Part shown: positions 3,139 to 46,029 of the stretch, one piece after another
Position numbering within the stretch: the first letter of the stretch is position 1
How the letters are laid out: every line of letters begins with the position of its first letter
Origin: Caldisericota bacterium
GTDB taxonomy: Bacteria > Caldisericota > Caldisericia > UBA6126 > JAGPKI01
Direction of reading: 5' to 3'
NCBI GenBank assembly: GCA_052034135.1
Contig: JBPOJC010000039.1
Span: forward strand, 1,543-65,542
DNA length: 64,000 nt
Notes under the pieces: model-generated
Database searches by the model: none
What the model was told of the DNA's origin: nothing
The model's input: the letters and a program-made list of their open reading frames with translations, nothing else
Made by a program: the position numbers and the translations under genes

Positions 3139-4322
3139 AACCTTCTGAAAATAACGCAGGAGCAACTGTAAAAAAAAGAACTGTTGCAATTCTCGGAGCA
3201 ACTGGTTCAATTGGGAGACAGGCGTTAGATGTCATAGCAACAGACAAAGATAACTTTGAACTGGTCTTAATAACATGCAATAAAAACATAAAATCTTTAA
3301 TAGAAATTGCAAATAAATGGAACATCAAAACAGTTGGTTTACACTCTATCCTTAAAAAAACTGATAAACCCTTAGATATAGAAGTCCTTACTGGAAACAA
3401 AGAAATCTCAAATTGGATATGCGAAAAGAAGATAGATACTCTCATTTTTTGCACTTCTGGAATAGAAGCTTTCGAAATATTACGAGACTGCTACTCCTCA
3501 TTTAAAAGAATTTGTATATCGAGCAAAGAAATAATCGTTATGGCAGGATTGTGTGGACTATTAGATACCATTAAATCAAAAATTCTGCTGATGCCAGTTG
3601 ATAGCGAGCATGTTGCAATTCATCAGTTAATTGAAAAAAAAGATTTGCGAGATATAAGAAGGCTTATAATAACTGCTTCAGGTGGACCAATTTACTCTAA
3701 AGCAGAATTAAATGATGACATTTCCTGGGCAACAAAAGAGAAAGCCTTAAAACACCCAACATGGGAAATGGGAGCAAAAGTTACAATTGATTCAGCTACT
3801 CTTGTAAATAAAGGAATCGAAATAATGGAGGCAAAATATCTCTTTGGAATCCCTGAAAGTAAAATTGATGTAATAATTCACCCTGAATCTATTATTCACT
3901 CTCTCATTGAGCTTAATGATAGCTTTTTATTTGCATCGCTTGCAATCCCTGATATGAGACTTCCCATTCAATACTCTCTTTATTATCCTGACAAAATAAT
4001 CTCAAAAATTAATAAAAGTTTAAATTTACGTGATATTGAGAAGCTTTCATTTAGAAATATGGATCCAAAAAAGATTGAATCAATTAAACTTGCATATGAA
4101 GCCTTAAATAATGGTAATATTTATCCTCTCGCTTATATTGCTTCTGATGAAGTAGCTGTAGAAGAATTCTTGAATGAGAAAATAACTTTTAAAGATATTT
4201 ATAAATTAATATCTGAAACCTTAAATGAGATTAAGCCATTTAATAATATAAATCCTTATAATATAATAGATATTTATTTGGAAATAAAAAGAAAGAGCAG
4301 GAAAATTTTAGAAAAGATATGA
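3135..4322 (+). CDS. dxr: 1-deoxy-D-xylulose 5-phosphate reductoisomerase
   Basis: VAILGATGSIGRQALDV NADPH-binding N-terminus; 395 aa; follows cdsA. Confidence 0.9.
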   Translation: MKPSENNAGATVKKRTVAILGATGSIGRQALDVIATDKDNFELVLITCNKNIKSLIEIANKWNIKTVGLHSILKKTDKPLDIEVLTGNKEISNWICEKKIDTLIFCTSGIEAFEILRDCYSSFKRICISSKEIIVMAGLCGLLDTIKSKILLMPVDSEHVAIHQLIEKKDLRDIRRLIITASGGPIYSKAELNDDISWATKEKALKHPTWEMGAKVTIDSATLVNKGIEIMEAKYLFGIPESKIDVIIHPESIIHSLIELNDSFLFASLAIPDMRLPIQYSLYYPDKIISKINKSLNLRDIEKLSFRNMDPKKIESIKLAYEALNNGNIYPLAYIASDEVAVEEFLNEKITFKDIYKLISETLNEIKPFNNINPYNIIDIYLEIKRKSRKILEKI

Positions 4323-9218: not shown

Positions 9219-11012
9219 ATGCAATACAAAAAGAAGTTATTATTTGTTCCTTCAATTTTGTTTTTAATAATAATTGCCTTAATTTTGCTCGGAAATTATT
9301 ATTTTCTAACAGAAGCTTCTGATTGTAAAGGTGGAGTTAATGGTGCAATTGTCTCTAAAATTAATAATACATACAAAGAAAATGTAACAGTAGAAGTTTA
9401 CAATGAAAATAATGAACTTGTATGGAGTGGGAAAACAGAAAGCGATGGGAAATTTGATACTGGTCTTACTTTACCTGAAGGTAATTATAAAGTAATTCCT
9501 TCTAAGACAAATTTTGTATTTACTCCTGAATACAAAGTTGTAGAAGTTAAATGTAATAATAAAGCTTTTGTAGCTTTCACTGTTATGGAAAGATGCAAAG
9601 GTGGAATTATGGGTTCTATTACTCCTTTAGAATATGGATATGATGTAGAAATTAAAATTTATTCTAATGATACAGATGAACTTGTGTGGAGTGGAAAAAC
9701 AGATAGGAATGGTAAATTTACAACAGGTAATATTTTGTATAAAGGGGAATATAAAGTTTTTCCACTTAAAAGTGGACTTATTTTTGAACCTGCTTCTCAA
9801 ACAGTAGATGTAATATGTTCACGTCTTGCAAATACCTCATTTAAAGTTAAACAGGATTGTAAGAGTGGGATAAAGGGTACAGTTATTCCCCAGGATTATG
9901 CTGAATGTGTTAAAATAAAGATATACAATGAAAATAATGAACTTGTATGGAGTGGGTCAACTGATGAAAAGGGAGTTTTTGATACTGATATGTCTCTACC
10001 GGAAGGGAAATATAAAGTTATTCCTTCTAAAGAAGGTTATTACTTTAAACCAGAAAATCAAAGCATTAATACAATATGCGGAAAAGTAGTATCACTCTTT
10101 TCTCAATTCATATGTGATAAATTATGTAAAGGTGCGATAGAAGGAACTATCAAACCTAAAGAACATGGTGAAAACTCCACTATAAAGATTTACAATGAAG
10201 ATGGTGAGCTTGTTTGGACTGATACCGCCTATGAAGAGGGTTATTTTTTTACAGGTTTTATTTTAGACACCGGAACAACTTACTCCTGGAGATATAGGGT
10301 TGTGCCATCTATGGATCAAGCAGTTTATACTCCTCCAAGTATAGAGGTTCCAGTTAAATGCGGAGAAAAGACTTTAGTAGAGTTTACCTGTGAAAATCCA
10401 TGTAAAGGTGGCATACAGGGTGCTATTAACCCTAAAGAGCACAAATATCCGATAAAAATAAATATCTACTCTGAAAAAGATGGAAAACTTGTGTGGAGTG
10501 GTTCCATTAATGATGATGGAGAATTTGACACAGGTTATAATCTACCTATTGCAAAGTACAAAGTAGTTCCTTCGAGTGTAGGCTACTCTTTCGATCCTAA
10601 ATCCGTAATAGTGCAGGTTAGATGTAAGCAAAAAGTATATGTTTCATTTAATTCAATAGAAATCTCTGATTGCCAGGTTCCAGTTAATATAAAAATAAAT
10701 GGACGATGCAGTGATGATTGCAAGAATCTTGTTACATTGTATGTATACAAGAAAAATGAAAATGGTTCATATATACCATATTACACTCTAACATCGATAT
10801 TAGACCAATTTGATAAAACTGGAAAAGCCAGCGCCTCTCTTCCTAAAGGAGAATATATGGTAACACCAAAAAAAACAGGTTGTGGTTATAAATGTGCTGG
10901 TGTTTCAGCGGTAGGTTGTAATTGTTCATCATGCAAGTGCAGTGGTGAAGATGCTATATTCGCAATTACCTGTGATTGCAAAGAAATTAATATATCATTT
11001 TTGTGTTACTAA
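9219..11012 (+). CDS. Secreted protein built from 5-6 tandem carboxypeptidase-regulatory-like / transthyretin-like beta-sandwich modules, ending in a Cys-rich C-terminal region
   Basis: A strong SD (GGGAGG) is followed by a signal/TM segment. About 90-95-aa modules recur, each starting CKGG/CKSG and containing 'ELVWSGKTDxxGKFDTG...EGxYKVxPSK'. The repeats are visible at the DNA level too. The C-terminus has many Cys (CGYKCAGVSAVGCNCSSCKCSG...). Confidence 0.55.
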   Translation: MQYKKKLLFVPSILFLIIIALILLGNYYFLTEASDCKGGVNGAIVSKINNTYKENVTVEVYNENNELVWSGKTESDGKFDTGLTLPEGNYKVIPSKTNFVFTPEYKVVEVKCNNKAFVAFTVMERCKGGIMGSITPLEYGYDVEIKIYSNDTDELVWSGKTDRNGKFTTGNILYKGEYKVFPLKSGLIFEPASQTVDVICSRLANTSFKVKQDCKSGIKGTVIPQDYAECVKIKIYNENNELVWSGSTDEKGVFDTDMSLPEGKYKVIPSKEGYYFKPENQSINTICGKVVSLFSQFICDKLCKGAIEGTIKPKEHGENSTIKIYNEDGELVWTDTAYEEGYFFTGFILDTGTTYSWRYRVVPSMDQAVYTPPSIEVPVKCGEKTLVEFTCENPCKGGIQGAINPKEHKYPIKINIYSEKDGKLVWSGSINDDGEFDTGYNLPIAKYKVVPSSVGYSFDPKSVIVQVRCKQKVYVSFNSIEISDCQVPVNIKINGRCSDDCKNLVTLYVYKKNENGSYIPYYTLTSILDQFDKTGKASASLPKGEYMVTPKKTGCGYKCAGVSAVGCNCSSCKCSGEDAIFAITCDCKEINISFLCY

Positions 11013-13439: not shown

Positions 13440-13665
13440 AATGTCACGGTCATTCTGAGCGGAGCGAAGAATCTCCTCTTTAATTTTTTTCTTCTTGTAA
13501 AACAGACATTCCTGCCTGGTCATTGTAATTCCAGTATAAATCTTTAATAATACAGAGAGAAGGAGTTCCTTCGGGAGCAAAATACAAGATACGCTCCCTC
13601 AGTAAGACGGAAGGAGTGACAGAAATCTCTTTTTTAACCCACTTATATATATGGAGGGTTTATTA
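13440..13665. repeat. Copy A (shortest) of a dispersed, hairpin-rich intergenic repeat family, between hypB and hypF
   Basis: It shares gtcattctgagcg(g/t)agcgaagaatct, ttccttcgg, ctccctcag..gac and a ..tatatat(t)atggag terminal motif with the 23.6-kb and 45.1-kb copies. Confidence 0.6.
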
Positions 13666-14607: not shown

Positions 14608-15774
14608 ATGATTAAAATAATTAAAAATTTCTTAATAATAAATTTAATTATATTTATTTTCCTATCACCTCGAGCAAGTGCTGATAATAAAAAATTACTC
14701 AGCAGTAATGAAATATTTTTAACTGTTTCTCCAGATAGTAATAGACTATATGAAGTTGAGTTTACTAATTATTCAGATTTAGAAAGCGAATTCTTGCTTA
14801 AATTCACTAAAGAACTTCCTAAAAACTGGCATATGAAAGCTTGCATTGAAGATATCTGTCTACAGAAAGAATACTTAACTGAAAAAATTAAACCTTGTCA
14901 AAAAAGTTCATTAACAATAAGGCTATTTGCACCAACAGACGCAGAACTCGACAAAGAACTTTCTGCAAGGTTAATGATAGGAGCTATTGAGGATTCTAAT
15001 ATTTCTGAATTTCTAAATATTTATGTTTACCCTGCCTTAAAAAGAACATTGATTTTGTGGATTTCTAAAAATGAAGCATTGCTAAACGATAAGAAATTAA
15101 CTCTTGATTCCCCTCCTATTATAAAAAATAGTAGAACTTTAGTCCCATTTCGATTTATAGGAGAGAGTTTTGGTGCTGATATAAGATGGGACAACAAAGA
15201 GAGAAGAGTTGATTATAAATTAGGAAGCGAGAGTTTATCTCTATGGATTGGTAGTAAAAAGGTAGAAGTCAAAACAGGAAAGGAAGTAAGAACATTTGAA
15301 ATAGATACAGAGCCAATAATAATAAATGGAAGGACTCTTGTACCTGTAAGATTTATCTCTGAGGAATTAGGCGCAAATGTTTTGTGGAGTGAATCTGAAA
15401 GAAAAGTTTCTATAGTATTTCCACGTGAAGACAAAATCCCGGATGATGGGAAAAATTCATTTTACGGAGAGATAGAACCTTCAGAGCTTTATAATTTAAT
15501 CAAGGAAGGAAAAGACATAAAATTAATAGATGTAAGGCTTCCAAGTGAGTACGAAGAAGGTCATATTCCTGGAGCAATAAATATTCCCTATCAAGATATA
15601 AAAGAAGAATTACCAAATAGAGTTGATATAAAAAAAGAAGATTTTATTGTTCTTTACTGCAAAACCGGAGAAAGAGCTGCTATTGCATGCGAAATAATTA
15701 CAAATATGAATTATTCAAATGTTAAGAATCTTACTGGTGGGATAAGTGCCTGGAAATACGAAAAAGAGATTTAA
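14608..15774 (+). CDS. Secreted protein with two copper-amine-oxidase-N-like (stalk) repeats fused to a C-terminal rhodanese domain
   Basis: SD GAGGAAG; signal peptide; two '...NSRTLVPFRFIGESFGADIRWD...' repeats; C-terminal rhodanese with active-site loop YCKTGERA (CxxGxR). Confidence 0.65.
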   Translation: MIKIIKNFLIINLIIFIFLSPRASADNKKLLSSNEIFLTVSPDSNRLYEVEFTNYSDLESEFLLKFTKELPKNWHMKACIEDICLQKEYLTEKIKPCQKSSLTIRLFAPTDAELDKELSARLMIGAIEDSNISEFLNIYVYPALKRTLILWISKNEALLNDKKLTLDSPPIIKNSRTLVPFRFIGESFGADIRWDNKERRVDYKLGSESLSLWIGSKKVEVKTGKEVRTFEIDTEPIIINGRTLVPVRFISEELGANVLWSESERKVSIVFPREDKIPDDGKNSFYGEIEPSELYNLIKEGKDIKLIDVRLPSEYEEGHIPGAINIPYQDIKEELPNRVDIKKEDFIVLYCKTGERAAIACEIITNMNYSNVKNLTGGISAWKYEKEI

Positions 15775-18502
15775 AAAATGTAAACTTAAAAAAATTGTAT
15801 CGTTTTTTTTAGTATTAGGAACCTTGGTAAGTGTACTTTTTAACCTTTCTTTTAGCAATGCTTATGCGAATAATAATATTGCTTCAGCCGGCATTAATAC
15901 TGATTATCTAATCATAGTTGAAAATAGTAATCTATCCAAAGCTGTCCTACCACTTGTAAATTTGAGAAAATCTCAAGGGTTGAATGTAAATATTGTTAAT
16001 GCACCTGACATTTATAAAGCTTACCAGGGAATAGATAATGCCGATAAAATAAGAAATTATTTAAAAGATAAATATAGAGTCTGGAATTTGAAATATCTGC
16101 TTCTTGTAGGTAACGAAAATTCTCTTCCCTACAAAATGCTTTATCCTTCCTATCTTAGGAGTGATAGCAATACGGAGGTCGGTAGAACTCCTTCTAATTT
16201 ATTTTACTCGGATCTTTCTTCTGATTTTGATGCAGACAAAGATAACTATCCTGGAGAATATGTAGAAGATGATAAAGAAATTGATTTTTCAACCGAAATA
16301 ATGGTTGGAAGGATTCCGTTTAGTTCTTCCGAAGACGTTTACAATACTATTAATAATATTGTAAATTTTGAAAAGACTCAAAAAAGTAAAAATGTGCTTC
16401 TTTCAGCGTCAATTTTATCATACGAAAATGAAGAGATTACACCTAAAAAAATGTCTAAAAGAACTGATGGAGCAACACTAACAAATGCTATACATAGAGA
16501 TCTTCTAAAACCAAATGGATATAAAGTAACCAGATTATACGAAAAATCTGGCTTAGCCCCCTCGCTTTATGAAAGCGAATATCCGCTTAAAAAAACCAAC
16601 TTTGAAAATTTACTCAAGACAAATACATATGATTTAGTTTTATGGAATGGACATGGGACTGAAAACGAACTACTCACAAAAATATGGACAGAGGACAAAA
16701 ATAAAAATAAAAAACCTGACAAAAACGAACTTGTATTATCAAATGTACTTTCGAGAGACTCTTTTCGCAATATGGGAAATAGAACGAAAGGAATATTTAT
16801 AACTGGAAGCTGCTCTTCAATAAAACCAGAAAGTGAAAATATTGGAAAAGAAGCTTTAAAGGCTGGTTTTACAAGTTTTATAGGTGGCACAAGAATTAAT
16901 TGGTTTGCAGAAGATTGGAAAAATATTAATGATGGCGGAAATCAGACTTTACTCTATTTCACAATTAGAAACTTAATTCTAAGAAATAATACTATCGGTG
17001 AAGCACTATATTCTGCCGTAGAAGAGTGTGCTTCTGGATATAAAATATACGGGAATAGAGACCTTCAAAATCTTTATTCATTTAATCTATACGGAGATCC
17101 AGCTTCAAGACTTAATCCTATCGAATTTAAAAATATATATGTTTCAGTAGATAGCGAAGAAAAGACAATTAACTTAGGAGAAGAACTGGAATTCCTTTTT
17201 AATATAGCAACAGAGGGAGGAGTAGATCTAAATATTAGTCTTTCGGCAATTGATTATAAAAAAGATATATTTACTCCATTTTTTTACCCAAACACAATAA
17301 AAAATCAAGGCACCGTAAACCTCAAAATCATAATGGCTAAAAATACATTCCCAACAATGTATTGTATGACGATTCATATTAAAACAAACACAAAGAGTGT
17401 CTTTAAAATTTTAAAATTTCTTATATTGCCATGGGAAAGAGGTCCTCAGATTTATCTTTCATACCCTCATTATAACATACTTAGAAATACAGAATTTACA
17501 GTAGATGTTTGTCTAAAAGATGCCTCGAATATCGATACAGTTTATACTGAAATAACATTTGATTCTTCAATAATTTCATCTAACACGAAAAGTATAATTA
17601 TTGGTGAATTTCTCACAAGAGATGGAACAATGCTAATAAAGCAAATAACCTCCATATCGCGAAATACTCTTGGGATTTACTGTACAAGAGGAAAATTTCA
17701 AAAGGGAATGAGTGGCAATGGTACAGTCTTTAGTATTAATTTTCGTTCCATAAAAGAAGGGTATTCAGATATAAAAATTACACGTTATTTCATATTTGAC
17801 CCCGTTGGTAATCAAATCAACTTAAAAAAGTTTGACTCAAATGTCACAGTTTCTAATACAGGTCTATTCATAAATAAAAATATAGCTTCTGGAGAGATTA
17901 CTTCAAAACAATTTTTATCAATAAATGGTTCCGTTAATGGCGAAACTCTGTGGATTGGTGATGATTCCTATAAATATTTAATTGAAATTGTAGATAACGG
18001 TAAATATTCTGAAACTTTGAAACTTAAAGATTTCAGAAATTCTATAGAATTCTCAGCTCAGAGAGAAAGTAATGATTTCACTAAAATAAAAGTGGAAATA
18101 ATAACTAATAGCATAATAAGCATAACTTTAAAGATTGGTATTAGTACTGCTTTAGTTAATGACAAAGAGATTTCTCTTGACACACCACCAATTTTAGAAA
18201 AAGGCAGAACCCTTGTCCCAATAAGGTTTATTAGTGAGTCGATAGGAGCTAATGTTAAGTGGAACGAAAAAGATATGAGTATTGTTATTACTCTTGGAGA
18301 TAAAAAAATATATCTATGGGTTGGGAAAAAGGAATCGATAATTGAGAAAAAAGGTGTTAAAACTACTTATATATTGGATGTTCCACCAAAAATAGTTAAT
18401 AATCGAACTCTTGTACCTTTAAGGTTTATTATGGAAGCTTTCTCTGCTACAGTTACATGGATAGATGAATATAAATTAATAAAGATTAGTTATTATAAAT
18501 AA
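15746..18502 (+). CDS. Peptidase C25 (gingipain-like) family secreted protein with C-terminal stalk repeats
   Basis: Signal peptide. KYLLLVGNENSLPY, WNGHGTEN (His) and FITGSCSS (Cys) resemble the C25 catalytic dyad context. Two copper-amine-oxidase-N-like repeats close the C-terminus. Confidence 0.6.
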   Translation: MPGNTKKRFKKCKLKKIVSFFLVLGTLVSVLFNLSFSNAYANNNIASAGINTDYLIIVENSNLSKAVLPLVNLRKSQGLNVNIVNAPDIYKAYQGIDNADKIRNYLKDKYRVWNLKYLLLVGNENSLPYKMLYPSYLRSDSNTEVGRTPSNLFYSDLSSDFDADKDNYPGEYVEDDKEIDFSTEIMVGRIPFSSSEDVYNTINNIVNFEKTQKSKNVLLSASILSYENEEITPKKMSKRTDGATLTNAIHRDLLKPNGYKVTRLYEKSGLAPSLYESEYPLKKTNFENLLKTNTYDLVLWNGHGTENELLTKIWTEDKNKNKKPDKNELVLSNVLSRDSFRNMGNRTKGIFITGSCSSIKPESENIGKEALKAGFTSFIGGTRINWFAEDWKNINDGGNQTLLYFTIRNLILRNNTIGEALYSAVEECASGYKIYGNRDLQNLYSFNLYGDPASRLNPIEFKNIYVSVDSEEKTINLGEELEFLFNIATEGGVDLNISLSAIDYKKDIFTPFFYPNTIKNQGTVNLKIIMAKNTFPTMYCMTIHIKTNTKSVFKILKFLILPWERGPQIYLSYPHYNILRNTEFTVDVCLKDASNIDTVYTEITFDSSIISSNTKSIIIGEFLTRDGTMLIKQITSISRNTLGIYCTRGKFQKGMSGNGTVFSINFRSIKEGYSDIKITRYFIFDPVGNQINLKKFDSNVTVSNTGLFINKNIASGEITSKQFLSINGSVNGETLWIGDDSYKYLIEIVDNGKYSETLKLKDFRNSIEFSAQRESNDFTKIKVEIITNSIISITLKIGISTALVNDKEISLDTPPILEKGRTLVPIRFISESIGANVKWNEKDMSIVITLGDKKIYLWVGKKESIIEKKGVKTTYILDVPPKIVNNRTLVPLRFIMEAFSATVTWIDEYKLIKISYYK

Positions 18503-19410: not shown

Positions 19411-20352
19411 TTAACCTTCTTCTTTATTTATACTTTCTCCTTTATCAATATTCTCATCTTTTTTAAATATTTCTGCTATTTCTGCGAGGCTTCCTAAAAT
19501 ACCGCTTGACTCATAAGGTATAAATAATTTAGAGGCTTTTCCGTCTGCTATGTTTTTTAAAGCATCTAAATATCGTATAGCAATTAAATCTTTAGTAGGA
19601 TTCCCTTGATGAATTGAATTAAAGATTTTTATAGTTGCCTCCGCTTGTCCATCTGCCTCTATAGACAATCTATACTTTTCTGCATCGGCAACTTTTCTTA
19701 TGGCTTCAGCATTACCTTCTGCTTGCAGAATAGCGGCTTGCTTTGTTCCTTCTGCTTTAAGTATCTCAGATTGTTTAATACCTTCTGCTTCTAAAATAAC
19801 GGCTCTTTTTGTTCTCTCTGCTTTCATTTGTCTGCTCATAGCTTCAGTTATATCATGAGGAGGATCAATTTTTTGAATTTCGACTCTTGTTACTTTAACT
19901 CCCCATTTATCTGTAGCTTCGTCAAGAACTTCTCTAAGTCTTTCATTAATCATTTCTCGAGAAGTTAAAGTTTGATCAAGTTCAAGGTCTCCAATTATGT
20001 TACGCAGATTCGTTTGAGCAAGTTTTACCGCAGCAAGAGTAAAATTTGATACATTATACAATACTCTAAAAGGATCTGTTACTTCGTAATAAATAACTGC
20101 GTCCACTGTAACCAATACATTATCCTTTGTAATCACTTCCTGAGGTGGAACATCAATCACACTCTCTCTCATATCAACTTTTTCAATTTTTTCTATAGCT
20201 GGTATTATAACATTCAAGCCTGACCCCAAAGTTCTTACATATTTTCCAAGCCTCTCGACAACTCCTCGCTGGTATGGACGAATAACTTTTAAGGAATTAG
20301 AGGCAAGAATAATTAGAAAAATAGCTAAAATAATCCACAGAAAAATATTCAT
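19411..20352 (-). CDS. SPFH/Band-7 (stomatin/prohibitin-like) membrane protein
   Basis: N-terminal TM segment, an SPFH domain ([16 protein letters not shown]...) and a C-terminal coiled-coil/Ala-rich region. Confidence 0.85.
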
Positions 20353-23629: not shown

Positions 23630-24012
23630 AGTGAGACTCCTTCGGCACCAATAAGACACTCCCTCAGGAAGACGGGAGAGGGATGGTCATTCTGAGCGTA
23701 AGCGAAGAATCTTCGTATCTGTCATCCCCGAAATCATTTATCGGGGATCCAGACCTTATTTCTAAACATACTTCTAAACTCTCTGGATTCCCGCAATCGC
23801 TTGGAATGACATGAAAAATCGAGAGAATGACATGAAAAGATGAGACCCTTCGTCGCCGGGAAAAACGCTCTTCAGGGTGACAGAGAGGAGGTGGATAGGA
23901 TTATTTTGTCATCCCCGAATGTATTTATAAGGGATCCAAGTCTTCGTTTTTATTATTTTGTATTTAGGAGTGACCGAATTTATAGTTTTACCTCACTATA
24001 TATTATGGAAGA
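23630..24012. repeat. Copy B of the hairpin-rich intergenic repeat family, ending 77 bp upstream of tRNA-Pro
   Basis: Contains gtcattctgagcgtaagcgaagaatc, gtcATCCCCGAaatcatttaTCGGGGATccagacc, ..ctctggattccc.., gaatgaca short repeats, gacccttcgtcgc, ctcttcagggtgacagag and the terminal ..ctcactatatattatggaag. Confidence 0.6.
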
Positions 24013-24796: not shown

Positions 24797-26041
24797 GTGA
24801 TTCTAAAATATTCAAAACCTGGAGAATTAGTATTAGATTATTTTTGCGGTGCTGGAACAACAGCTGTAGAGTGTAAGCTTTTAGGAAGAAAATGTGTCGC
24901 CTTAGATATTAATTATAAAGCAATTGAATTGGCAAAAAAGAATATAGATTTTAGTGTGGAACCACAGCAACAATCACTTTTTGGTCAAAAACAACATTTT
25001 GAAGTCTACGAACCAAGGCTTATTGTTGGTGATGCCAGAGACTTATCATTTATAGAAGATAATTCTATTGATTTGATTTGTGCTCATCCACCTTATGCAA
25101 ATATTATTCATTATACAGATAGAAGTGAAGGTGATTTGTCGTTTTTTGATATAGATGAATTCTTAAAGGAAATGTCCAAGGTAGCTAAAGAAAGTTTTAG
25201 GGTGTTAAAACCTGGCAGACAATGTGCTATTTTGATAGGTGATACTCGAAGCAAAAAACATGTAATCCCTTTAGGTTTCAAACTAATAGATGTTTATTTA
25301 TCTGCTGGTTTTAAGCTGAGAGAGCTAATCGTTAAACAACAACACAATTGTAAAACTACAGGTTTTTGGTATACAAATAGTATAAAATACAATTTTCTTC
25401 TGTTGGCTCATGAGTATTTACCAGTTTTCGAGAAACCAGCAATATCGATTCCTGCAGTTGCAAAAGAAGAAAACACAATAAATTATGATTTGTTTATTCC
25501 TTATTCAAAGAATCCATCGGTAAAAAGTAAATCTAACGAGCTTGAGACCACAACAGTGTGGAGTTTGCCAGAGAAGGATTTCGAGGAGCATTTAAATAGA
25601 AATGTAATTGAAAGATATTCGAACGGTAGCAAATATTCAATTATTAATTTTGTGACAAATTCTAATGAAGAAACCACCTTTTTTGATAATAAAAGAGAAA
25701 AAAACAAAGCTTTGCTTTTTATCAAATTGCCACTTTTAGACAATAATCTATCTAACTCAAATATTGAATTGTATTTGCAAAAAATAAAAGAAATTGTAAA
25801 TAATGGATTACCTACAATAATAGAAGACGGCTTTATAGTTATTCAAACTCAAGATGTAAGAATTGATGGATACGTAAAGCCTCTTGCTAAAGAATTAGTG
25901 AATGAATTAACAAATGATGATTTATGGCTAAAGGAAATAGTGATTGTTACTCAGGAAGGAGTAAATTCAAAAATACAAAATTTAGAGGAGTATTTAAAGA
26001 TAGTGCATCAATATTTACTTGTTTACGAGGTGATAAAATAA
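24797..26041 (+). CDS. DNA methyltransferase (N6-adenine/N4-cytosine amino-MTase). It carries an FxGxG-type SAM motif (DYFCGAGTT) and an (A)HPPY catalytic motif. The annotated ORF is probably only the central segment of a longer, frame-disrupted gene
   Basis: Motifs VLDYFCGAGTTAVEC and DLICAHPPYANIIHY, then ..RVLKPGRQCAILIGD.. and ..HEYLPVFEKP. The reading frame is open upstream to 24509 with HTH-like sequence (LQEAILNEKERGASDLEIGQKYGVTFRYIEQLI) and no start codon. The 3' end can be joined to ORF2 by a +1 A in an A4 run. Confidence 0.75.
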   Translation: MILKYSKPGELVLDYFCGAGTTAVECKLLGRKCVALDINYKAIELAKKNIDFSVEPQQQSLFGQKQHFEVYEPRLIVGDARDLSFIEDNSIDLICAHPPYANIIHYTDRSEGDLSFFDIDEFLKEMSKVAKESFRVLKPGRQCAILIGDTRSKKHVIPLGFKLIDVYLSAGFKLRELIVKQQHNCKTTGFWYTNSIKYNFLLLAHEYLPVFEKPAISIPAVAKEENTINYDLFIPYSKNPSVKSKSNELETTTVWSLPEKDFEEHLNRNVIERYSNGSKYSIINFVTNSNEETTFFDNKREKNKALLFIKLPLLDNNLSNSNIELYLQKIKEIVNNGLPTIIEDGFIVIQTQDVRIDGYVKPLAKELVNELTNDDLWLKEIVIVTQEGVNSKIQNLEEYLKIVHQYLLVYEVIK

Positions 26042-26055
26042 AGAAAACCTTCAGC

Positions 26056-26466
26056 TTGTTAAAAACAATCTTTTACTATTTGGAGTCTTCTTATAAAATA
26101 TGGAAAGTTAATCGTTTGCAAATAGATGACCTTGTTTATACTACTAACGAAAATGTTCGTTTTGAAGTGTATCCAGGTAAAAAGTTACAATCACCTTATG
26201 ATTTTATTGTAAAATTTAGACAACCAGGCAGACGAGCAAGAACACCAGCTCATGTTCATTTGATTGTAGAAATGTATGTTAAGCATGCTTATAATCCATC
26301 TTTAACTTTAAAATTAAGAGACCATATCTTAACAATGCTCAGTCAAATTAAACCAGTAAATACATTTCCGCCAACACTTCAGGTTTTCAAACTTGAACAT
26401 ATTGAACCATTTAAGGATTTGGATAAAGTTGGCGAATTCACAGTTGAGTTCTTGCTTTTGCAATAG
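26056..26466 (+). CDS. Hypothetical protein, or a detached C-terminal (TRD-like) segment of the methyltransferase
   Basis: ORF 25924..26466 overlaps the MTase end by 118 bp. Its first 39 aa look like out-of-frame sequence. There is no in-frame ATG; TTG at 26056 is the first plausible start, and the SD is weak. Confidence 0.35.
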   Translation: MLKTIFYYLESSYKIWKVNRLQIDDLVYTTNENVRFEVYPGKKLQSPYDFIVKFRQPGRRARTPAHVHLIVEMYVKHAYNPSLTLKLRDHILTMLSQIKPVNTFPPTLQVFKLEHIEPFKDLDKVGEFTVEFLLLQ

Positions 26467-28121: not shown

Positions 28122-28384
28122 ATTAATCTTAATCTTAATTGTTTTACCTATTATTTTGGTTGTATTAGTCTAAATAAATAAAACTAATCTTTTAAACTTA
28201 CCTTTTCTAAGTCAAATTTTTTATAAAAATACAAAAACTTTAATGACCTAAAATGAGAGTATTTTAACATTATTTATAAGCATAGGCATTCTTTAGCAAA
28301 TCGTAAACTTGAATATTTATCATTTTAATCTATACTAATTTCTGTCAAAAAGTGAAGAAGTTAAGATTTCGGAGGTGTATCAAT

Positions 28385-30997
28385 ATGAAAAAATACACAG
28401 TCTTATTAACTCTAATTACGCTATTTTGTTTATATTTTTCGAATTTACCTCTAATTTGTTCTGAAAATCCATTAGATGCTGCCAGACTTGACCCATGGTT
28501 ATCCATGTATCATGATTGCAATTTGTCAGGTAAAACTAATACTTCCCTTAAATCACCACTAAAAGAAGGGGCAGGATATCCTATTAAAATAGAGAATGAG
28601 AATCAATTCACTGTTAGTAGTGGTTTCGCAATTTATAATAACATGATCTTTTTGCAATGCAATTCGAAAAAAGATGGTGAATTCTCGGAACTTCGAGTTT
28701 ATGATCTTAAAAACGCAGACTTATTATGGTCAACTAAAGTAAAGGGTCCTGATGTATCTTTAATGTGCCCTGTAATTATCCCAGACTTAAATACAGTCTT
28801 TGTTGCTGGAACTCTTGAACTTGAAGAAGAGTCAATTAGAAAAGATGGTACCTTTATATCAGCAATTGATATAAATAGTCATAACATCAAGTGGACTGCG
28901 TCTGTTCCTGGAACTATACAAGATGGCTTACAATACTCTCAGGAAGCAATTTATGTAAGAGGAATTTATATACAACACTCAACAAAAAACAATATTAAAT
29001 ACATTGACTCAAAAACTTCTGTCCTAACCAAAATCGATGCAAATAATGGTCAAATAGATTGGTCAAAGAAATTATCTTTTTCAACAACAAAAGGGTTTGG
29101 TATGGTATCTGCATCAGGTGATAAGCTAATTATTTCAGGTTGTTCTTATTTAAGTCGTAGAGAATCTGATAAGTCATGGAGTTGTTATTCACCGGTGATT
29201 ATACAATGTTTTGAAACATCCAAAGGTAATATATTATGGGAAAAAAATTACCCCGACTATAACAAGATTGGCAATATAAGCATAGATAATAATCAAGTTT
29301 ATTCACTATTGAATAAAGGTCATAACGATGAAACATACGAGGTGTCTTGCATTTCTCTTGATCTATCAACAGGAGAGCAAAAATGGGAATTCAAACAAAA
29401 AGGGTTTTACGGAGGTTTTATAACTCCCAAATTTAATGAAGAGTTCGTCTTTTTTGCAGCCAATTCTGGCTATGTTTTTGCGTTGAATAAAGAAAATGGA
29501 AAGCTTAAATGGTCACAGCAGATTAAGAATGAAGATTATTTTATTAATTTTCAATGCTCTGCAACTCTAGTAACAAATGAACACCTCTTTTTAGGTGGAA
29601 CACAAATTGTAGGAACTTACACAGGAGGAGCAATTATTTATGAATATCGCTCACTAATACTTATGCTAAATTTACAAAATGGAAGGGTTGAATGGAAAGA
29701 GATATTTGATAAAGATCATCCACATACAATTACTTCCGCAGTATATGGCAAGGGGTTGATCTTCCTAACACAAAGAAATGACCTTTATTATTATGAATCC
29801 CAAATGCCAGAGTTGGAAGTAAGCCCTACTGATATAGATTTGGGAGAATTAGAGCATGGAAGCAAAAAAATCATCAAGATATCAGTTAAGAATAAAGGCA
29901 AAAAAGGACTTAAAGGTAACATACAGGTTTCTGACCCTATCTGGATGAGCGTGGATAAAGATATCATTGATGATAATACGACTGACTTTAATCTTACAAT
30001 AAATACCGAGCCCTTAAAATTGGGTCCAATGAATGGAATAGTGAAAATAAATTCAAATGGTGGAAATAAAGCAATAAATGTAAAATTGGTTGTTGTAGAT
30101 AAAACCCCACCTGAAATATTGCTGAACACTGATGATTTGATTAAAATTGAAGAAAATTATTACACAAATAAATCGAAATATGAATTAAAAGGAACAACTG
30201 AACCCAAAGCATTGCTTTTAATAAATGAAAAAACCATTGAATTAAGCGAAAATGGGGAATTTAAATTCATTATTGAACTAAGTGAAGGAAAAAATGAAAT
30301 ATCGATTAAAGCAACTGATCAATCTGGAAATACAAATGAAATAATATTTACATTGTATCTTGATACCACTCCTCCAAATATTCAGATTAAAACTCAGAAT
30401 TATAAATTATGCTCCAAAGATTCTGAGTATATTTCAGGTGCTGTTGATGATTTAAAAGCCATATTAAAAATCAATGGAGAAAATGTAGAAATTTCACCTG
30501 ATGGTAGTTTTTCAAAATTGATCAAACTTAATCAAGGAATTAACGAAATTAATTTAACGTGTAGTGATCTTGTCGGAAATATTACGGAATTAAAACATTA
30601 TCTTGTATTTCCAGAAAAAAAGCTGATTATACTTTATATTGGCGAGAAAAGAGCAGAAGTTAATAATCAAACAGTTATATTGGATACTCCACCTATGATT
30701 ATAAAAGGTTCTACTATGGTGCCTCTCCGCTTTATCGGTGAAGCAATAGGCGCAGAACTTAATTATGATAATTCAGAACAAAAAATTACACTTAAATTAT
30801 ACAATAAGACAATAATTCTCTGGATAAATAAAACAACTGCTCTGATTAATAATGATCCTGTTTCACTAAATGTTCCTCCGATAATTGTTAATGGCAGAAC
30901 TCTCGTTCCTGTAAGGTTTGTCTCAGAAAATCTGGGTGCGAAAGTTGATTGGGATGGAAAATTGCAAAAAATTACTATAACTTTTCCTTCAGATTAA
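28385..30997 (+). CDS. Secreted PQQ-like beta-propeller repeat protein with Ig-like middle domains and C-terminal stalk repeats
   Basis: SD GGAGGTG precedes the second ATG (28385). Signal peptide. PQQ-like repeats (NGQIDWSKK, GEQKWEFKQ, NGKLKWSQQ, NGRVEWKEI). C-terminal '...GSTMVPLRFIGEAIGAELNYD...' and '...NGRTLVPVRFVSENLGAKVDWD...' repeats. Confidence 0.6.
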   Translation: MKKYTVLLTLITLFCLYFSNLPLICSENPLDAARLDPWLSMYHDCNLSGKTNTSLKSPLKEGAGYPIKIENENQFTVSSGFAIYNNMIFLQCNSKKDGEFSELRVYDLKNADLLWSTKVKGPDVSLMCPVIIPDLNTVFVAGTLELEEESIRKDGTFISAIDINSHNIKWTASVPGTIQDGLQYSQEAIYVRGIYIQHSTKNNIKYIDSKTSVLTKIDANNGQIDWSKKLSFSTTKGFGMVSASGDKLIISGCSYLSRRESDKSWSCYSPVIIQCFETSKGNILWEKNYPDYNKIGNISIDNNQVYSLLNKGHNDETYEVSCISLDLSTGEQKWEFKQKGFYGGFITPKFNEEFVFFAANSGYVFALNKENGKLKWSQQIKNEDYFINFQCSATLVTNEHLFLGGTQIVGTYTGGAIIYEYRSLILMLNLQNGRVEWKEIFDKDHPHTITSAVYGKGLIFLTQRNDLYYYESQMPELEVSPTDIDLGELEHGSKKIIKISVKNKGKKGLKGNIQVSDPIWMSVDKDIIDDNTTDFNLTINTEPLKLGPMNGIVKINSNGGNKAINVKLVVVDKTPPEILLNTDDLIKIEENYYTNKSKYELKGTTEPKALLLINEKTIELSENGEFKFIIELSEGKNEISIKATDQSGNTNEIIFTLYLDTTPPNIQIKTQNYKLCSKDSEYISGAVDDLKAILKINGENVEISPDGSFSKLIKLNQGINEINLTCSDLVGNITELKHYLVFPEKKLIILYIGEKRAEVNNQTVILDTPPMIIKGSTMVPLRFIGEAIGAELNYDNSEQKITLKLYNKTIILWINKTTALINNDPVSLNVPPIIVNGRTLVPVRFVSENLGAKVDWDGKLQKITITFPSD

Positions 30998-45074: not shown

Positions 45075-45650
45075 CTCCCCTCCCGTCATTCTGAAAGTGC
45101 GGTATTATCGCACTTTTAATGAAGGATCTCTGTAACACTAGACGTCATTCTGAACGAAGTGAAGAATCTCCGTATTTAATCATTTCATTTTTTATTCATG
45201 TTTAGGTTTATTTTGCATGAGAGTAAAAAGAGAAGTTCCTTCGGTCGTTTAGAAAACACTCCCTCAGGATGACTGAGGAGGGTCATTCCCAAAATCTTTT
45301 ATTGGGAATCCAGACCTTATTTCTAAGCATACTTCTAAAACTCTCTGGATTCCCACGAAAGCAGGAATGACAATAAAAAGCGAATGAATGACAAGAAAAA
45401 TCATAGAAATGACAATAAAAATCGAGGGAATAACACGCAAAGAGACCCTTCGTCGCTTTCAGATATGCTCCTCAGGGTGACAGGAGGGGTTGTCGTTCCT
45501 CTTCGACATTAGATACGCTCCCTTAGAAATGCGGCATGAATAGTCATTCTTGAACTTATTTATTAGGGAATCCAGGCCATTTTTTTCTTTTGTATTTAGT
45601 TAGGAGTGACAAAATTATCTTTTTTTACTCCACTATATATTATGGAGGGA
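45075..45650. repeat. Copy C (longest) of the hairpin-rich intergenic repeat family, in the 1.2-kb gap upstream of gmk
   Basis: Contains gtcattctgaAAGTGCGgtattatCGCACTTt, gtcattctgaacgaagtgaagaatc, gtcATTCCCAAaatcttttaTTGGGAATccagacc, ..ctctggattccc.., 3-4 gaatgaca(a/t) short repeats, gacccttcgtcgc, ctcctcagggtgacaggagg and the terminal ..ccactatatattatggaggg. Confidence 0.6.
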
Positions 45651-45989
45651 TTATTTATATTTCTAAGTAGTATTTACTACTATTAGTTTTAAGCTTGTAT
45701 TGTTTATGATACGTTATCATTATGCACGCGAAGGTGCGAAAGAATGAGATCCTTTGGTTTGCTTAAGAAGACGCTCCACCGGACTCATTGATTTTCAAGA
45801 ATTCTCAATGTATATTAGAAGAAATACGGAAAATCCACAAGATTTCGGGTTGCAGAAATCTAAATATTCAATTACTTTATAGCTTTTCGTAAATTCTATG
45901 TTTGCACGGCTTCAATCCTTCACAGGTATTCTAAAAACTTGACTTTGTGAACTATTCTAGAATTAAAAAATATATTAGACTCGCATATT

Positions 45990-46017
45990 TTGACAAAAAT
46001 TGTAGATAAATTAAAAT
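45990..46017 (+). promoter_or_regulatory. Candidate sigma70-type promoter for the gmk operon (TTGACA-16 nt-TAAAAT)
   Basis: The -35 TTGACA sits at 45990-45995 and the -10 TAAAAT at 46012-46017. The predicted TSS falls just before the second ATG (46030), which has a GAGAGA SD-like sequence. Confidence 0.3.
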
Positions 46018-46029
46018 ATGAGAGATATT

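Follow-up and report, generated by a model that had tools for sequence, protein, structure and literature searches.

Three intergenic regions in a 64-kb stretch of DNA from an uncultured Caldisericota bacterium (the window, analysed here over its whole length) share a set of short, hairpin-forming sequence modules, and they pose the question of what kind of element they represent and of the level, RNA or DNA, at which their structure is maintained. The window has a G+C content of about 31% and a LeuRS 93% identical to proteins recorded as Caldisericia bacterium, and its proteins are also present in anaerobic-digester metagenomes. The gene neighbours bear out the intergenic placement given in the initial annotation. 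The minus-strand genes hypF and hypB adjoin region A (13440-13665) on either side; region B (23630-24012) is flanked by coaE (minus strand) and a tRNA-Pro gene (plus strand), and region C (45075-45650) by a gene for an MBL-fold/Cu_amine_oxidN1 protein (minus strand) and gmk (plus strand). The arrays themselves extend over about 13443-13662, 23635-24012 and 45085-45649. Regions B and C occupy divergent promoter regions and region A lies within a probable hyp operon. A repeat search recovered the reported ordered modules shared by the three regions as families D4, D5, D8, D9, D11, D13 and D14.

Each region is probably a mosaic array of short hairpin repeats that act as single-stranded DNA, of the Ssn-related (NTS/dRS3) class, with an organization like that of the NIMEs of Neisseria or the BIMEs of E. 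coli. No new kind of element is revealed. The regions had been described as previously unrecognised, which is wrong for the units that compose them: their anatomy is that of Neisseria dRS3/NTS and of the Ssn-related motifs (PMC11893778), and contigs of related lineages hold the exact NTS core.

Anatomy of the repeat units

A unit spans 25-45 nt and comprises a 5' GTCAT box, a hairpin of 5-8 bp and a conserved 3' tail. The generic pattern GTCATYCY-N8-30-RGRATC is found 10 times in the window, against 0.13 occurrences expected from shuffles, and all 10 fall within the three regions, on both strands. These ten generic units all begin with GTCAT; T3 and T1L units begin with GTCTT, GTCAC or GTCAT, and at least 15 units are present in 64 kb, compared with about 0.1 expected for the generic pattern. 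The other module words are confined to the same regions, save for a few chance matches in coding sequence.

Inspection of every GTCWY site in the window defined two frames. Frame I has the form GTCAYYCTGAG-hairpin-CGAAGRRTC. Its T1 units have the minimal inner part GAGCG-N-AGCGA, and T1L, T3 and T4 units combine the outer parts of frame I with longer inner loops or stems. Frame II, represented by T2, has the form GTCATYCC..GGRATCCAG with an 8-bp stem and is NTS/dRS3-like. Units stand singly, commonly also as inverted doublets with outward GTCAT boxes, or as decayed copies, and linker modules are interleaved among them.

Array A, a shorter subset of the modules of B and C, holds a T1 unit (13449-13473, plus strand; GTCATTCTGAGCGGAGCGAAGAATC), module M5 (13497-13514, plus strand; GTAAAACAGACATTCCTG), which in related copies is a hairpin module of the ACAGAC..GTCTGT type, and a T3 unit in the CTGAG..CGAAG frame with a long inner hairpin (13564-13608, minus strand; GTCTTACTGAG-GGAGC..GCTCC-CGAAGGAAC). 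A common terminal module closes each of the arrays (GGAGTGAC..CACTWATATAT..ATGGAGG); that of array A is at 13613-13658 on the plus strand (GGAGTGAC..CACTTATATATATGGAGGG).

Array B starts with a T3 unit whose inner hairpin is decayed (23635-23673, minus strand), followed by a T1 unit (23686-23711, plus strand; GTCATTCTGAGCGTAAGCGAAGAATC) and by an inverted doublet (23721-23810) in which a plus-strand T2 (GTCATCCCCGAAATCATTTATCGGGGATCCAGA) and a minus-strand T2 surround a 29-nt linker, with the GTCAT boxes outermost. The doublet is followed by a 21-nt tandem repeat of GAATGACA half-sites (family D5), here as two units (23802-23843, plus strand) with GTCATTC half-sites on the minus strand. A T1L unit (23843-23881, minus strand; GTCACCCTGAAGAGC..GCGACGAAGGGTC), a degenerate T2 (23908-23939, plus strand) and the terminal module (23967-24012, plus strand; GGAGTGAC..CACTATATATTATGGAAG) complete the array, which ends 77 nt upstream of tRNA-Pro.

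Array C begins with a T4 unit that carries a long inner hairpin (45085-45128, plus strand; GTCATTCTGAAAGTGCGG..CGCACTTTTAATGAAGGATC) and a T1 unit with an inner A-T pair in place of G-C (45144-45168, plus strand; GTCATTCTGAACGAAGTGAAGAATC). An AT-rich spacer module (45186-45235, plus strand; TTATTCATGTTTAGGTTTATTT..), also present in the related contigs L262 and L265, separates these from a T3 unit (45238-45273, minus strand). Next come the second T2 inverted doublet (45282-45371; plus-strand unit GTCATTCCCAAAATCTTTTATTGGGAATCCAGA, linker, minus-strand unit), 3.5 copies of the 21-nt tandem repeat AGGAATGACAATAAAAATCGA (45363-45435, plus strand), a T1L unit (45443-45481, minus strand; GTCACCCTGAGGAGC..GCGACGAAGGGTC), a degenerate T2 (45543-45575, plus strand), and the terminal module (45603-45649, plus strand; GGAGTGAC..CACTATATATTATGGAGGG).

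Kinship to the Neisseria transformation-related repeats

The Neisseria NTS, CGTCATTCCCGCGMAVGCGGGAATCYRG, contains the dRS3 sequence (ATTCCC-N8-GGGAAT) and generalises to a larger set of "Ssn-related motifs" (SRM), which flank ssnA, a gene for a small single-domain GIY-YIG nuclease (cd10448), across phyla; SsnA binds and cuts NTS as single-stranded DNA, not as double-stranded DNA or RNA (Chenal et al. 2025, PMC11893778). The flanks of the window T2 units, GTCATTCC..GGGAATCCAG, are identical to those of Neisseria NTS, and the exact NTS core GTCATTCCCGCGAAAGCGGGAATCC[AG]G occurs in contigs of related lineages beside the linker and modules of the window type. In the window, as in Ssn-related motifs, an oriented 5' GTCWY box stands directly before the hairpin.

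The published SRM pattern, HGTCWYN(0-2)YYVSBRHN(0-5)WNVSBRGN(0-2)RNCYNB, gives no strict match in the window, and one match (at 23721) if the pattern starts without its leading H and its loop gap is widened to 12; it fails because the window units have longer loops and some A/T-substituted stems. Strict dRS3 is likewise absent from the window, which has variants only, and is found two to four times per contig in the related contigs L261, L264, L265 and L267. A literature search for the T1 sequence returned unrelated primer matches only.

Conservation of the hairpins

The proposal that paired stem halves co-vary is borne out between arrays B and C and in larger samples of units. The pair of stems quoted for the two arrays is correct, ATCCCCGA/TCGGGGAT in B corresponding to ATTCCCAA/TTGGGAAT in C, with two double changes in an 8-bp stem, as is the compensatory change from CTCT..AGAG to CTCCT..AGGAG. 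Of a third example, GATTCT-loop-AGAATC, the stem is present, but the pairing is ATTCT/AGAAT, of 5 bp.

The larger samples were picked by pattern or by pairing, so that their paired fractions are inflated and their informative part lies in the split pairs and slide controls: the inner pair of T1 in 147 IMG/VR copies is G-C in 126, A-T in 19 and mismatched in 2; three unconstrained inner pairs of 59 distinct T2 units are Watson-Crick in 52, 47 and 50, against shuffle means of 23, 34 and 29, with the fourth unconstrained position, the next inward, unpaired; and in 19 T2 units of the Caldisericia lineage 93.9% of cells are paired, against 11-60% with a slid partner, one column pair being divided between CG (10) and UA (9) with no mismatch. 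The hairpin is thus kept by compensatory change, as in Ssn-related motifs, and several individual units are decayed.

When the units are folded as DNA and compared with shuffles, T2 hairpins (z -3.3 and -4.7), the T4 unit (z -6.2) and the doublets of B (z -3.5) and C (z -4.7) fold significantly; the T3 unit of array A has a z of -2.1. With nearest-neighbour DNA parameters T1, T1L and several T3 units are no more stable than shuffles, nor are the units at 23908, 45543, 23635-23673 and 45238-45273, several of which are visibly decayed. The T1 core GAGCG-N-AGCGA can, as judged from its sequence, form two G-C pairs around a GNA triloop with adjoining tandem G.A pairs. The d(GCGAAGC) mini-hairpin is very stable, and nearest-neighbour energy parameters under-rate it; the T1 core presumably resembles this mini-hairpin.

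Mosaic architecture and related contigs

Some 430 nt of arrays B and C align colinearly, with 76% column identity, and the indels between the two are whole modules. The view of each region as one long element is not borne out, in that the arrays are mosaics whose modules recur in other orders in other copies. When JGI metagenomes were scanned for the linker, 8 matches appeared, 3 by chance and 5 in genuine related arrays; the five related contigs (L261, L262, L264, L265 and L267) have G+C contents of 33-38% and carry the modules of the window in other orders, and the linker is identical or has 1-2 differences across these independent contigs. The sub-strings that recur, with signs for orientation, are T2+ linker T2-; T1L- T4+ T2+; T1/T4+ M5 AT-rich T3-; T3- with the terminal module; and T2-, the 21-nt repeat in variable number, T1L-. 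The linker ATCCAGACCTTATTTCTAA gave only 5 chance matches, in unrelated taxa, in a genome contig collection and no match in IMG/VR.

The related arrays adjoin toxin-antitoxin, DUF3800 and methylase genes; the neighbours, judged from their translations, are RelE-like, DUF4258-like, DUF433-like, DUF3800-like and methylase-like. Simpler inverted doublets, with different stems, are found in a sister lineage whose LeuRS is about 93% identical (L255 at 11666; L260 at 12324). The intergenic region that replaces array C in this lineage (L255 8990-9440; L260 8890-9200) holds direct repeats of another kind, with two copies of atgttcctctgaaaataataactccaaaat about 140 nt apart and two of ggattaaagttattattttcatgctt(g/a)tgttgtgg(c/t)agaaat about 195 nt apart; a 91-aa ORF called there has no Pfam match.

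Several other features of the window were observed. Just downstream of tRNA-Pro and array B, at 24797-26466, a 180-aa ORF overlaps an ORF that resembles a DNA methyltransferase and has an HPPY motif; together they may form a small restriction-modification islet. The unassigned non-coding DNA of about 300 nt between array C and gmk (45700-45990) includes a hairpin, GCACGCGAAGGTGC, similar to the 3' half of T4. A 597-aa ORF (9219-11012) is internally repetitive, at periods of about 265 and 525 nt (families D2, D3, D7 and D10), consistent with a repeated surface-protein domain. Segments of 44 nt (family D1), in pairs about 186-198 nt apart, lie inside ORFs at 15115-15356, 18188-18429 and 30692-30921; the products of the first two have Cu_amine_oxidN1 domains, the third ORF is 28352-30997, and these coding repeats bear no relation to the intergenic arrays. 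A 33-nt tandem repeat in three copies (19713-19824; family D6) lies in a minus-strand Band_7/SPFH gene.

Assembly breaks and the question of turnover

Independent short-read contigs bear on both the reality and the behaviour of array C. Seven of the eight that are shown match the window from 44833 up to 45189-45314 with zero mismatches and end inside the array, at 45189 (where L293 terminates exactly) or at 45311-45314. The eighth, L299 (from SRR30791824), equals the window up to 45189 and diverges completely beyond it (from 45190), a sign of either a structural variant in the population or an alternative assembly path. This break point falls just after the T1 unit of array C. On the other side, two further contigs match 45452-46029 and 45577-46029 with zero mismatches, starting at 45452 and 45577. 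The sequence of array C is not an assembly artefact. No independent contig spans 45315-45451, where the join across the array core comes from the source contig and might be chimeric. Contigs on the hypB side terminate inside arrays A and B. Every short-read assembly breaks within arrays, which suggests that a genome holds many copies. Among strains with an Nfo protein of the same 90%-identity cluster, conserved gene order ends precisely at array C; beyond that position lie Zip and enolase genes, or dnaG and rpoD, and units are absent there.

These observations bear on the possibility that the arrays are fossils, that is, Ssn-type repeats by descent whose nuclease has been lost, left as neutral, decaying DNA with no effects besides assembly breaks and occasional recombination. 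The decayed units listed above, which fold no better than shuffles, and the lack of an Ssn gene in the window are in keeping with such an origin, as is the report that, among genomes holding over 200 motifs, 19% have no detectable homologue (PMC11893778). Against it stand the intact stems, paired at 8 of 8 positions and with double compensatory differences between B and C, the linker that is nearly constant in five independent contigs, the many near-identical copies that must exist, given that all assemblers break at one and the same base, and the structural variant at 45190. Intact stems, constant linker, near-identical copies and this variant together argue for recent turnover, and fossil status is considered unlikely.

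Selection at the level of DNA or RNA

The compensatory changes uphold the earlier proposal of selection on structure, but the RNA level that it had also allowed is less likely than single-stranded DNA. According to the RNA interpretation, the arrays would be transcribed, and their hairpins would stabilise or terminate mRNA or would serve as small RNAs or processing sites. Covariation alone cannot separate RNA from single-stranded DNA, and the location of arrays B and C in divergent promoter regions and of A inside a probable hyp operon is compatible with transcription. Region C has no credible Rfam match at E<=10, however, and only tRNA-Pro exceeds the gathering threshold; the regions have few sites that resemble promoters or terminators (1-2 terminator-like ones each), at positions that do not correspond across arrays. 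Like units adjoin unrelated genes and occur in phage contigs. Since units lie in both orientations within one array, no single transcript carries all of them in the sense direction. Selection on single-stranded DNA is more likely, given this mixture of orientations, the lack of an Rfam match and the reported action of SsnA, the one characterised partner enzyme, on single-stranded DNA and not on RNA or double-stranded DNA (PMC11893778). The RNA interpretation, which is not mutually exclusive with a DNA-level model, is accordingly held to be highly improbable.

Candidates of other kinds were tried and rejected. There are no regularly spaced identical repeats that would make a CRISPR, and the only matches are weak and single, to a CRISPR-repeat-like Rfam family at 45909-45943 (E 0.4-1.7, below threshold). 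A sigma-70 promoter in the terminal module would have GTGACA and TATATA spaced by 21-22 nt, and no promoter enrichment was found. For coding peptides, there is no Pfam domain, and small ORFs that start from the terminal ATGGAGG are conserved over three residues only.

Ssn-like genes bracketed by units in other contigs

Both frames are widespread in IMG/VR contigs, where their hairpins also co-vary: T1 was found in 118 stretches with G+C contents of 0.32-0.69 and T2 in more than 120. Genes for Ssn-like proteins were located with an HMM built from GIY-YIG matches (Pfam PF01541). In L196 and L162 such genes lie 25 and 43 nt from T2 units, and in L120 the gene is bracketed by T1 units. A targeted scan gave 18 Ssn-like IMG/VR stretches (three of them on contigs already named, L269 with L196, L284 with L162 and L286 with L120). 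In all 18 a unit is found 40-90 nt upstream, on the strand of the gene, and each clade has its own stem; an inverted unit lies just downstream in 17, the exception being L273, whose available sequence ends 9 nt past the gene. All four further members of the T1-associated clade (L288-L291) have T1 units both upstream and abutting the stop codon, and the downstream unit of L289 carries a long inner hairpin like those of T3 and T4 in the window. In total, 22 distinct contigs have an Ssn-like gene between units with outward GTCAT boxes, five of them with frame I, and bracketing is complete in all five frame I (CTGAG..CGAAG) contigs (L120/L286 and L288-L291). The Ssn-like proteins have no PDB and no NCBIfam match.

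The published SRM pattern also misses the units that bracket the Ssn-like genes of L288-L291 and is therefore narrower than the family. Because frame I brackets its own Ssn clade and yet is unmatched by that pattern, it represents an Ssn-related class which the pattern misses. The bracket geometry, with GTCAT boxes outward, is that of the gene-less doublets in the window, which, to judge from this arrangement, may be miniature derivatives of a unit-ssn-unit element. There is no GIY-YIG gene in the 64-kb window, so that a resident Ssn nuclease is something we infer; a Caldisericia Ssn was not singled out among the best 120 of thousands of protein matches.

Phage-like contigs carry units between structural genes, sometimes in tandem, as in L076 (IMG/VR, about 55-60% G+C), where T1 forms tandem arrays of four and then three copies with a period of 30-33 nt (9360-9745); many others have single T1 or T2 units beside structural genes. 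This suggests that phages carry, exploit or mimic these hairpins. The phage-like IMG/VR contig L287 (60% G+C) has, at 3371-3401 and directly after a terminator-like hairpin, a unit whose stem is the same as that of the Caldisericia unit and whose AT-rich loop is similar (GTCATCCCCGAATCCTTTATCGGGGATCCAGAG; the loop in window array B is AATCATTTA); as L287 is GC-rich, the AT-rich loop is a trait of the unit subtype and not of host base composition. At eight IMG/VR loci (L165 and seven others) an ORF for an IS110/Piv-like recombinase lies within 250 nt of T2 units, an arrangement that we take to resemble the system of Neisseria filamentous prophages. The dRS3 sequence is a target for a phage recombinase (PMC11893778).

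The bracketed genes also bear on whether the hairpins are REP/REPIN elements, mobilised by a domesticated Y1 transposase of the IS200/IS605 type (RAYT) as in Proteobacteria. The anatomy agrees, with a conserved 5' tetranucleotide and a palindrome, doublets of inverted units that fold into long hairpins, and a mosaic make-up of the arrays. The box here, however, is GTCA(T) and not the GT[AG]G of REPs; the enzyme genes found bracketed by units, in 22 distinct contigs, are all GIY-YIG; and phmmer revealed no RAYT-like ORF in 2.48 Mb of loci, a weak test made with an approximate E. coli RayT query. A RAYT-driven origin is given very little credence.

Hardly any credence attaches to the last alternative, that of non-autonomous derivatives of DDE insertion sequences (MITEs, with terminal inverted repeats and target-site duplications) or attC-bounded integron cassettes, in that the terminal inverted symmetry of the doublets and the toxin-antitoxin genes beside related arrays, as in cassette arrays, are opposed by the lack of direct repeats flanking the doublets (by inspection) and of any Pfam domain, transposase domains included, in ORFs within or beside the arrays, by the absence of RYYYAAC/GTTRRRY attC cores from the units, and by modules that are shuffled and not copied as one fixed element. 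The MITE-like nested symmetry of gtcattc and gaatgac described in the initial annotation is real; its source is the inverted unit doublets. The target-site duplications that it proposed to look for were not seen by inspection at the ends, and the transposase remnants that it took as grounds for refutation were not found by Pfam in the array ORFs.

Proposed mechanism and significance

Under the preferred reading of the regions as mosaic arrays of Ssn-related hairpins, the units would extrude when DNA is single-stranded, as in replication, uptake or repair, and would then be bound and nicked beside the GTCAT box by a putative Ssn-type nuclease encoded elsewhere in the Caldisericia genome. Arrays would be built up, shuffled and moved by recombination among the dispersed units, and they may in this way become preferred sites of rearrangement and of accessory-gene gain. 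A broader and decidedly doubtful extension would regard the doublets as gene-less mini-copies of an IS-like "unit-ssn-unit" element. Together with their hairpins, GIY-YIG Ssn nucleases might then form a second mobile system based on single-stranded DNA hairpins, HUH-independent and parallel to RAYT/REPIN, with NTS-type and CTGAG/CGAAG-type specificity classes in one Caldisericia genome; the arrays might be recombination landing pads that collect toxin-antitoxin and defence genes, and phages with tandem units might exploit or evade the system.

This analysis brings Caldisericota, a little-studied phylum whose representative here is an uncultured anaerobic-digester lineage, into the range of Ssn-type hairpin repeats and indicates that the published search pattern misses a widespread second class of units with its own nuclease clade. 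The arrays would account both for the breaks that metagenome assemblies of this lineage invariably show at these sites and for the differences in gene order there between close relatives. Once its genome is closed, the lineage should offer a compact system for studying how the units multiply.

Comparison with known systems

Neisseria NIMEs consist of short inverted-repeat units that alternate with longer "RS" spacer modules, and they are variable, rearrangement-prone intergenic sites. The arrays of the window have an analogous architecture of inverted-repeat units and spacer modules, with dRS3 taken as described in PMC11893778, and their loose module order is that of BIMEs and NIMEs. They differ in that the spacer modules of the window are unrelated in sequence and that strict dRS3 is lacking there.

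In REP/BIME/REPIN systems, too, inverted doublets are recurrent and a single-copy gene for the associated enzyme lies between repeats of its own, but the enzyme there is an HUH Y1 transposase and the box is GTAG, whereas the enzyme here is a GIY-YIG nuclease and the box GTCA. The likeness to the SRM/NTS repeats lies in the GTCAT box, the 7-8-bp hairpin on its 3' side and the ATCC(A/G)G tail after that, as well as in the intergenic, clustered, multi-copy occurrence of the units and in the bracketing of Ssn-like genes, seen here in other contigs. The window units depart from the published degenerate pattern by their longer AT-rich loops or A/T-substituted stems, and the family to which they belong includes a second frame, GTCAYYCTGAG-hairpin-CGAAGRRTC, with an Ssn clade of its own, and a host in Caldisericota.
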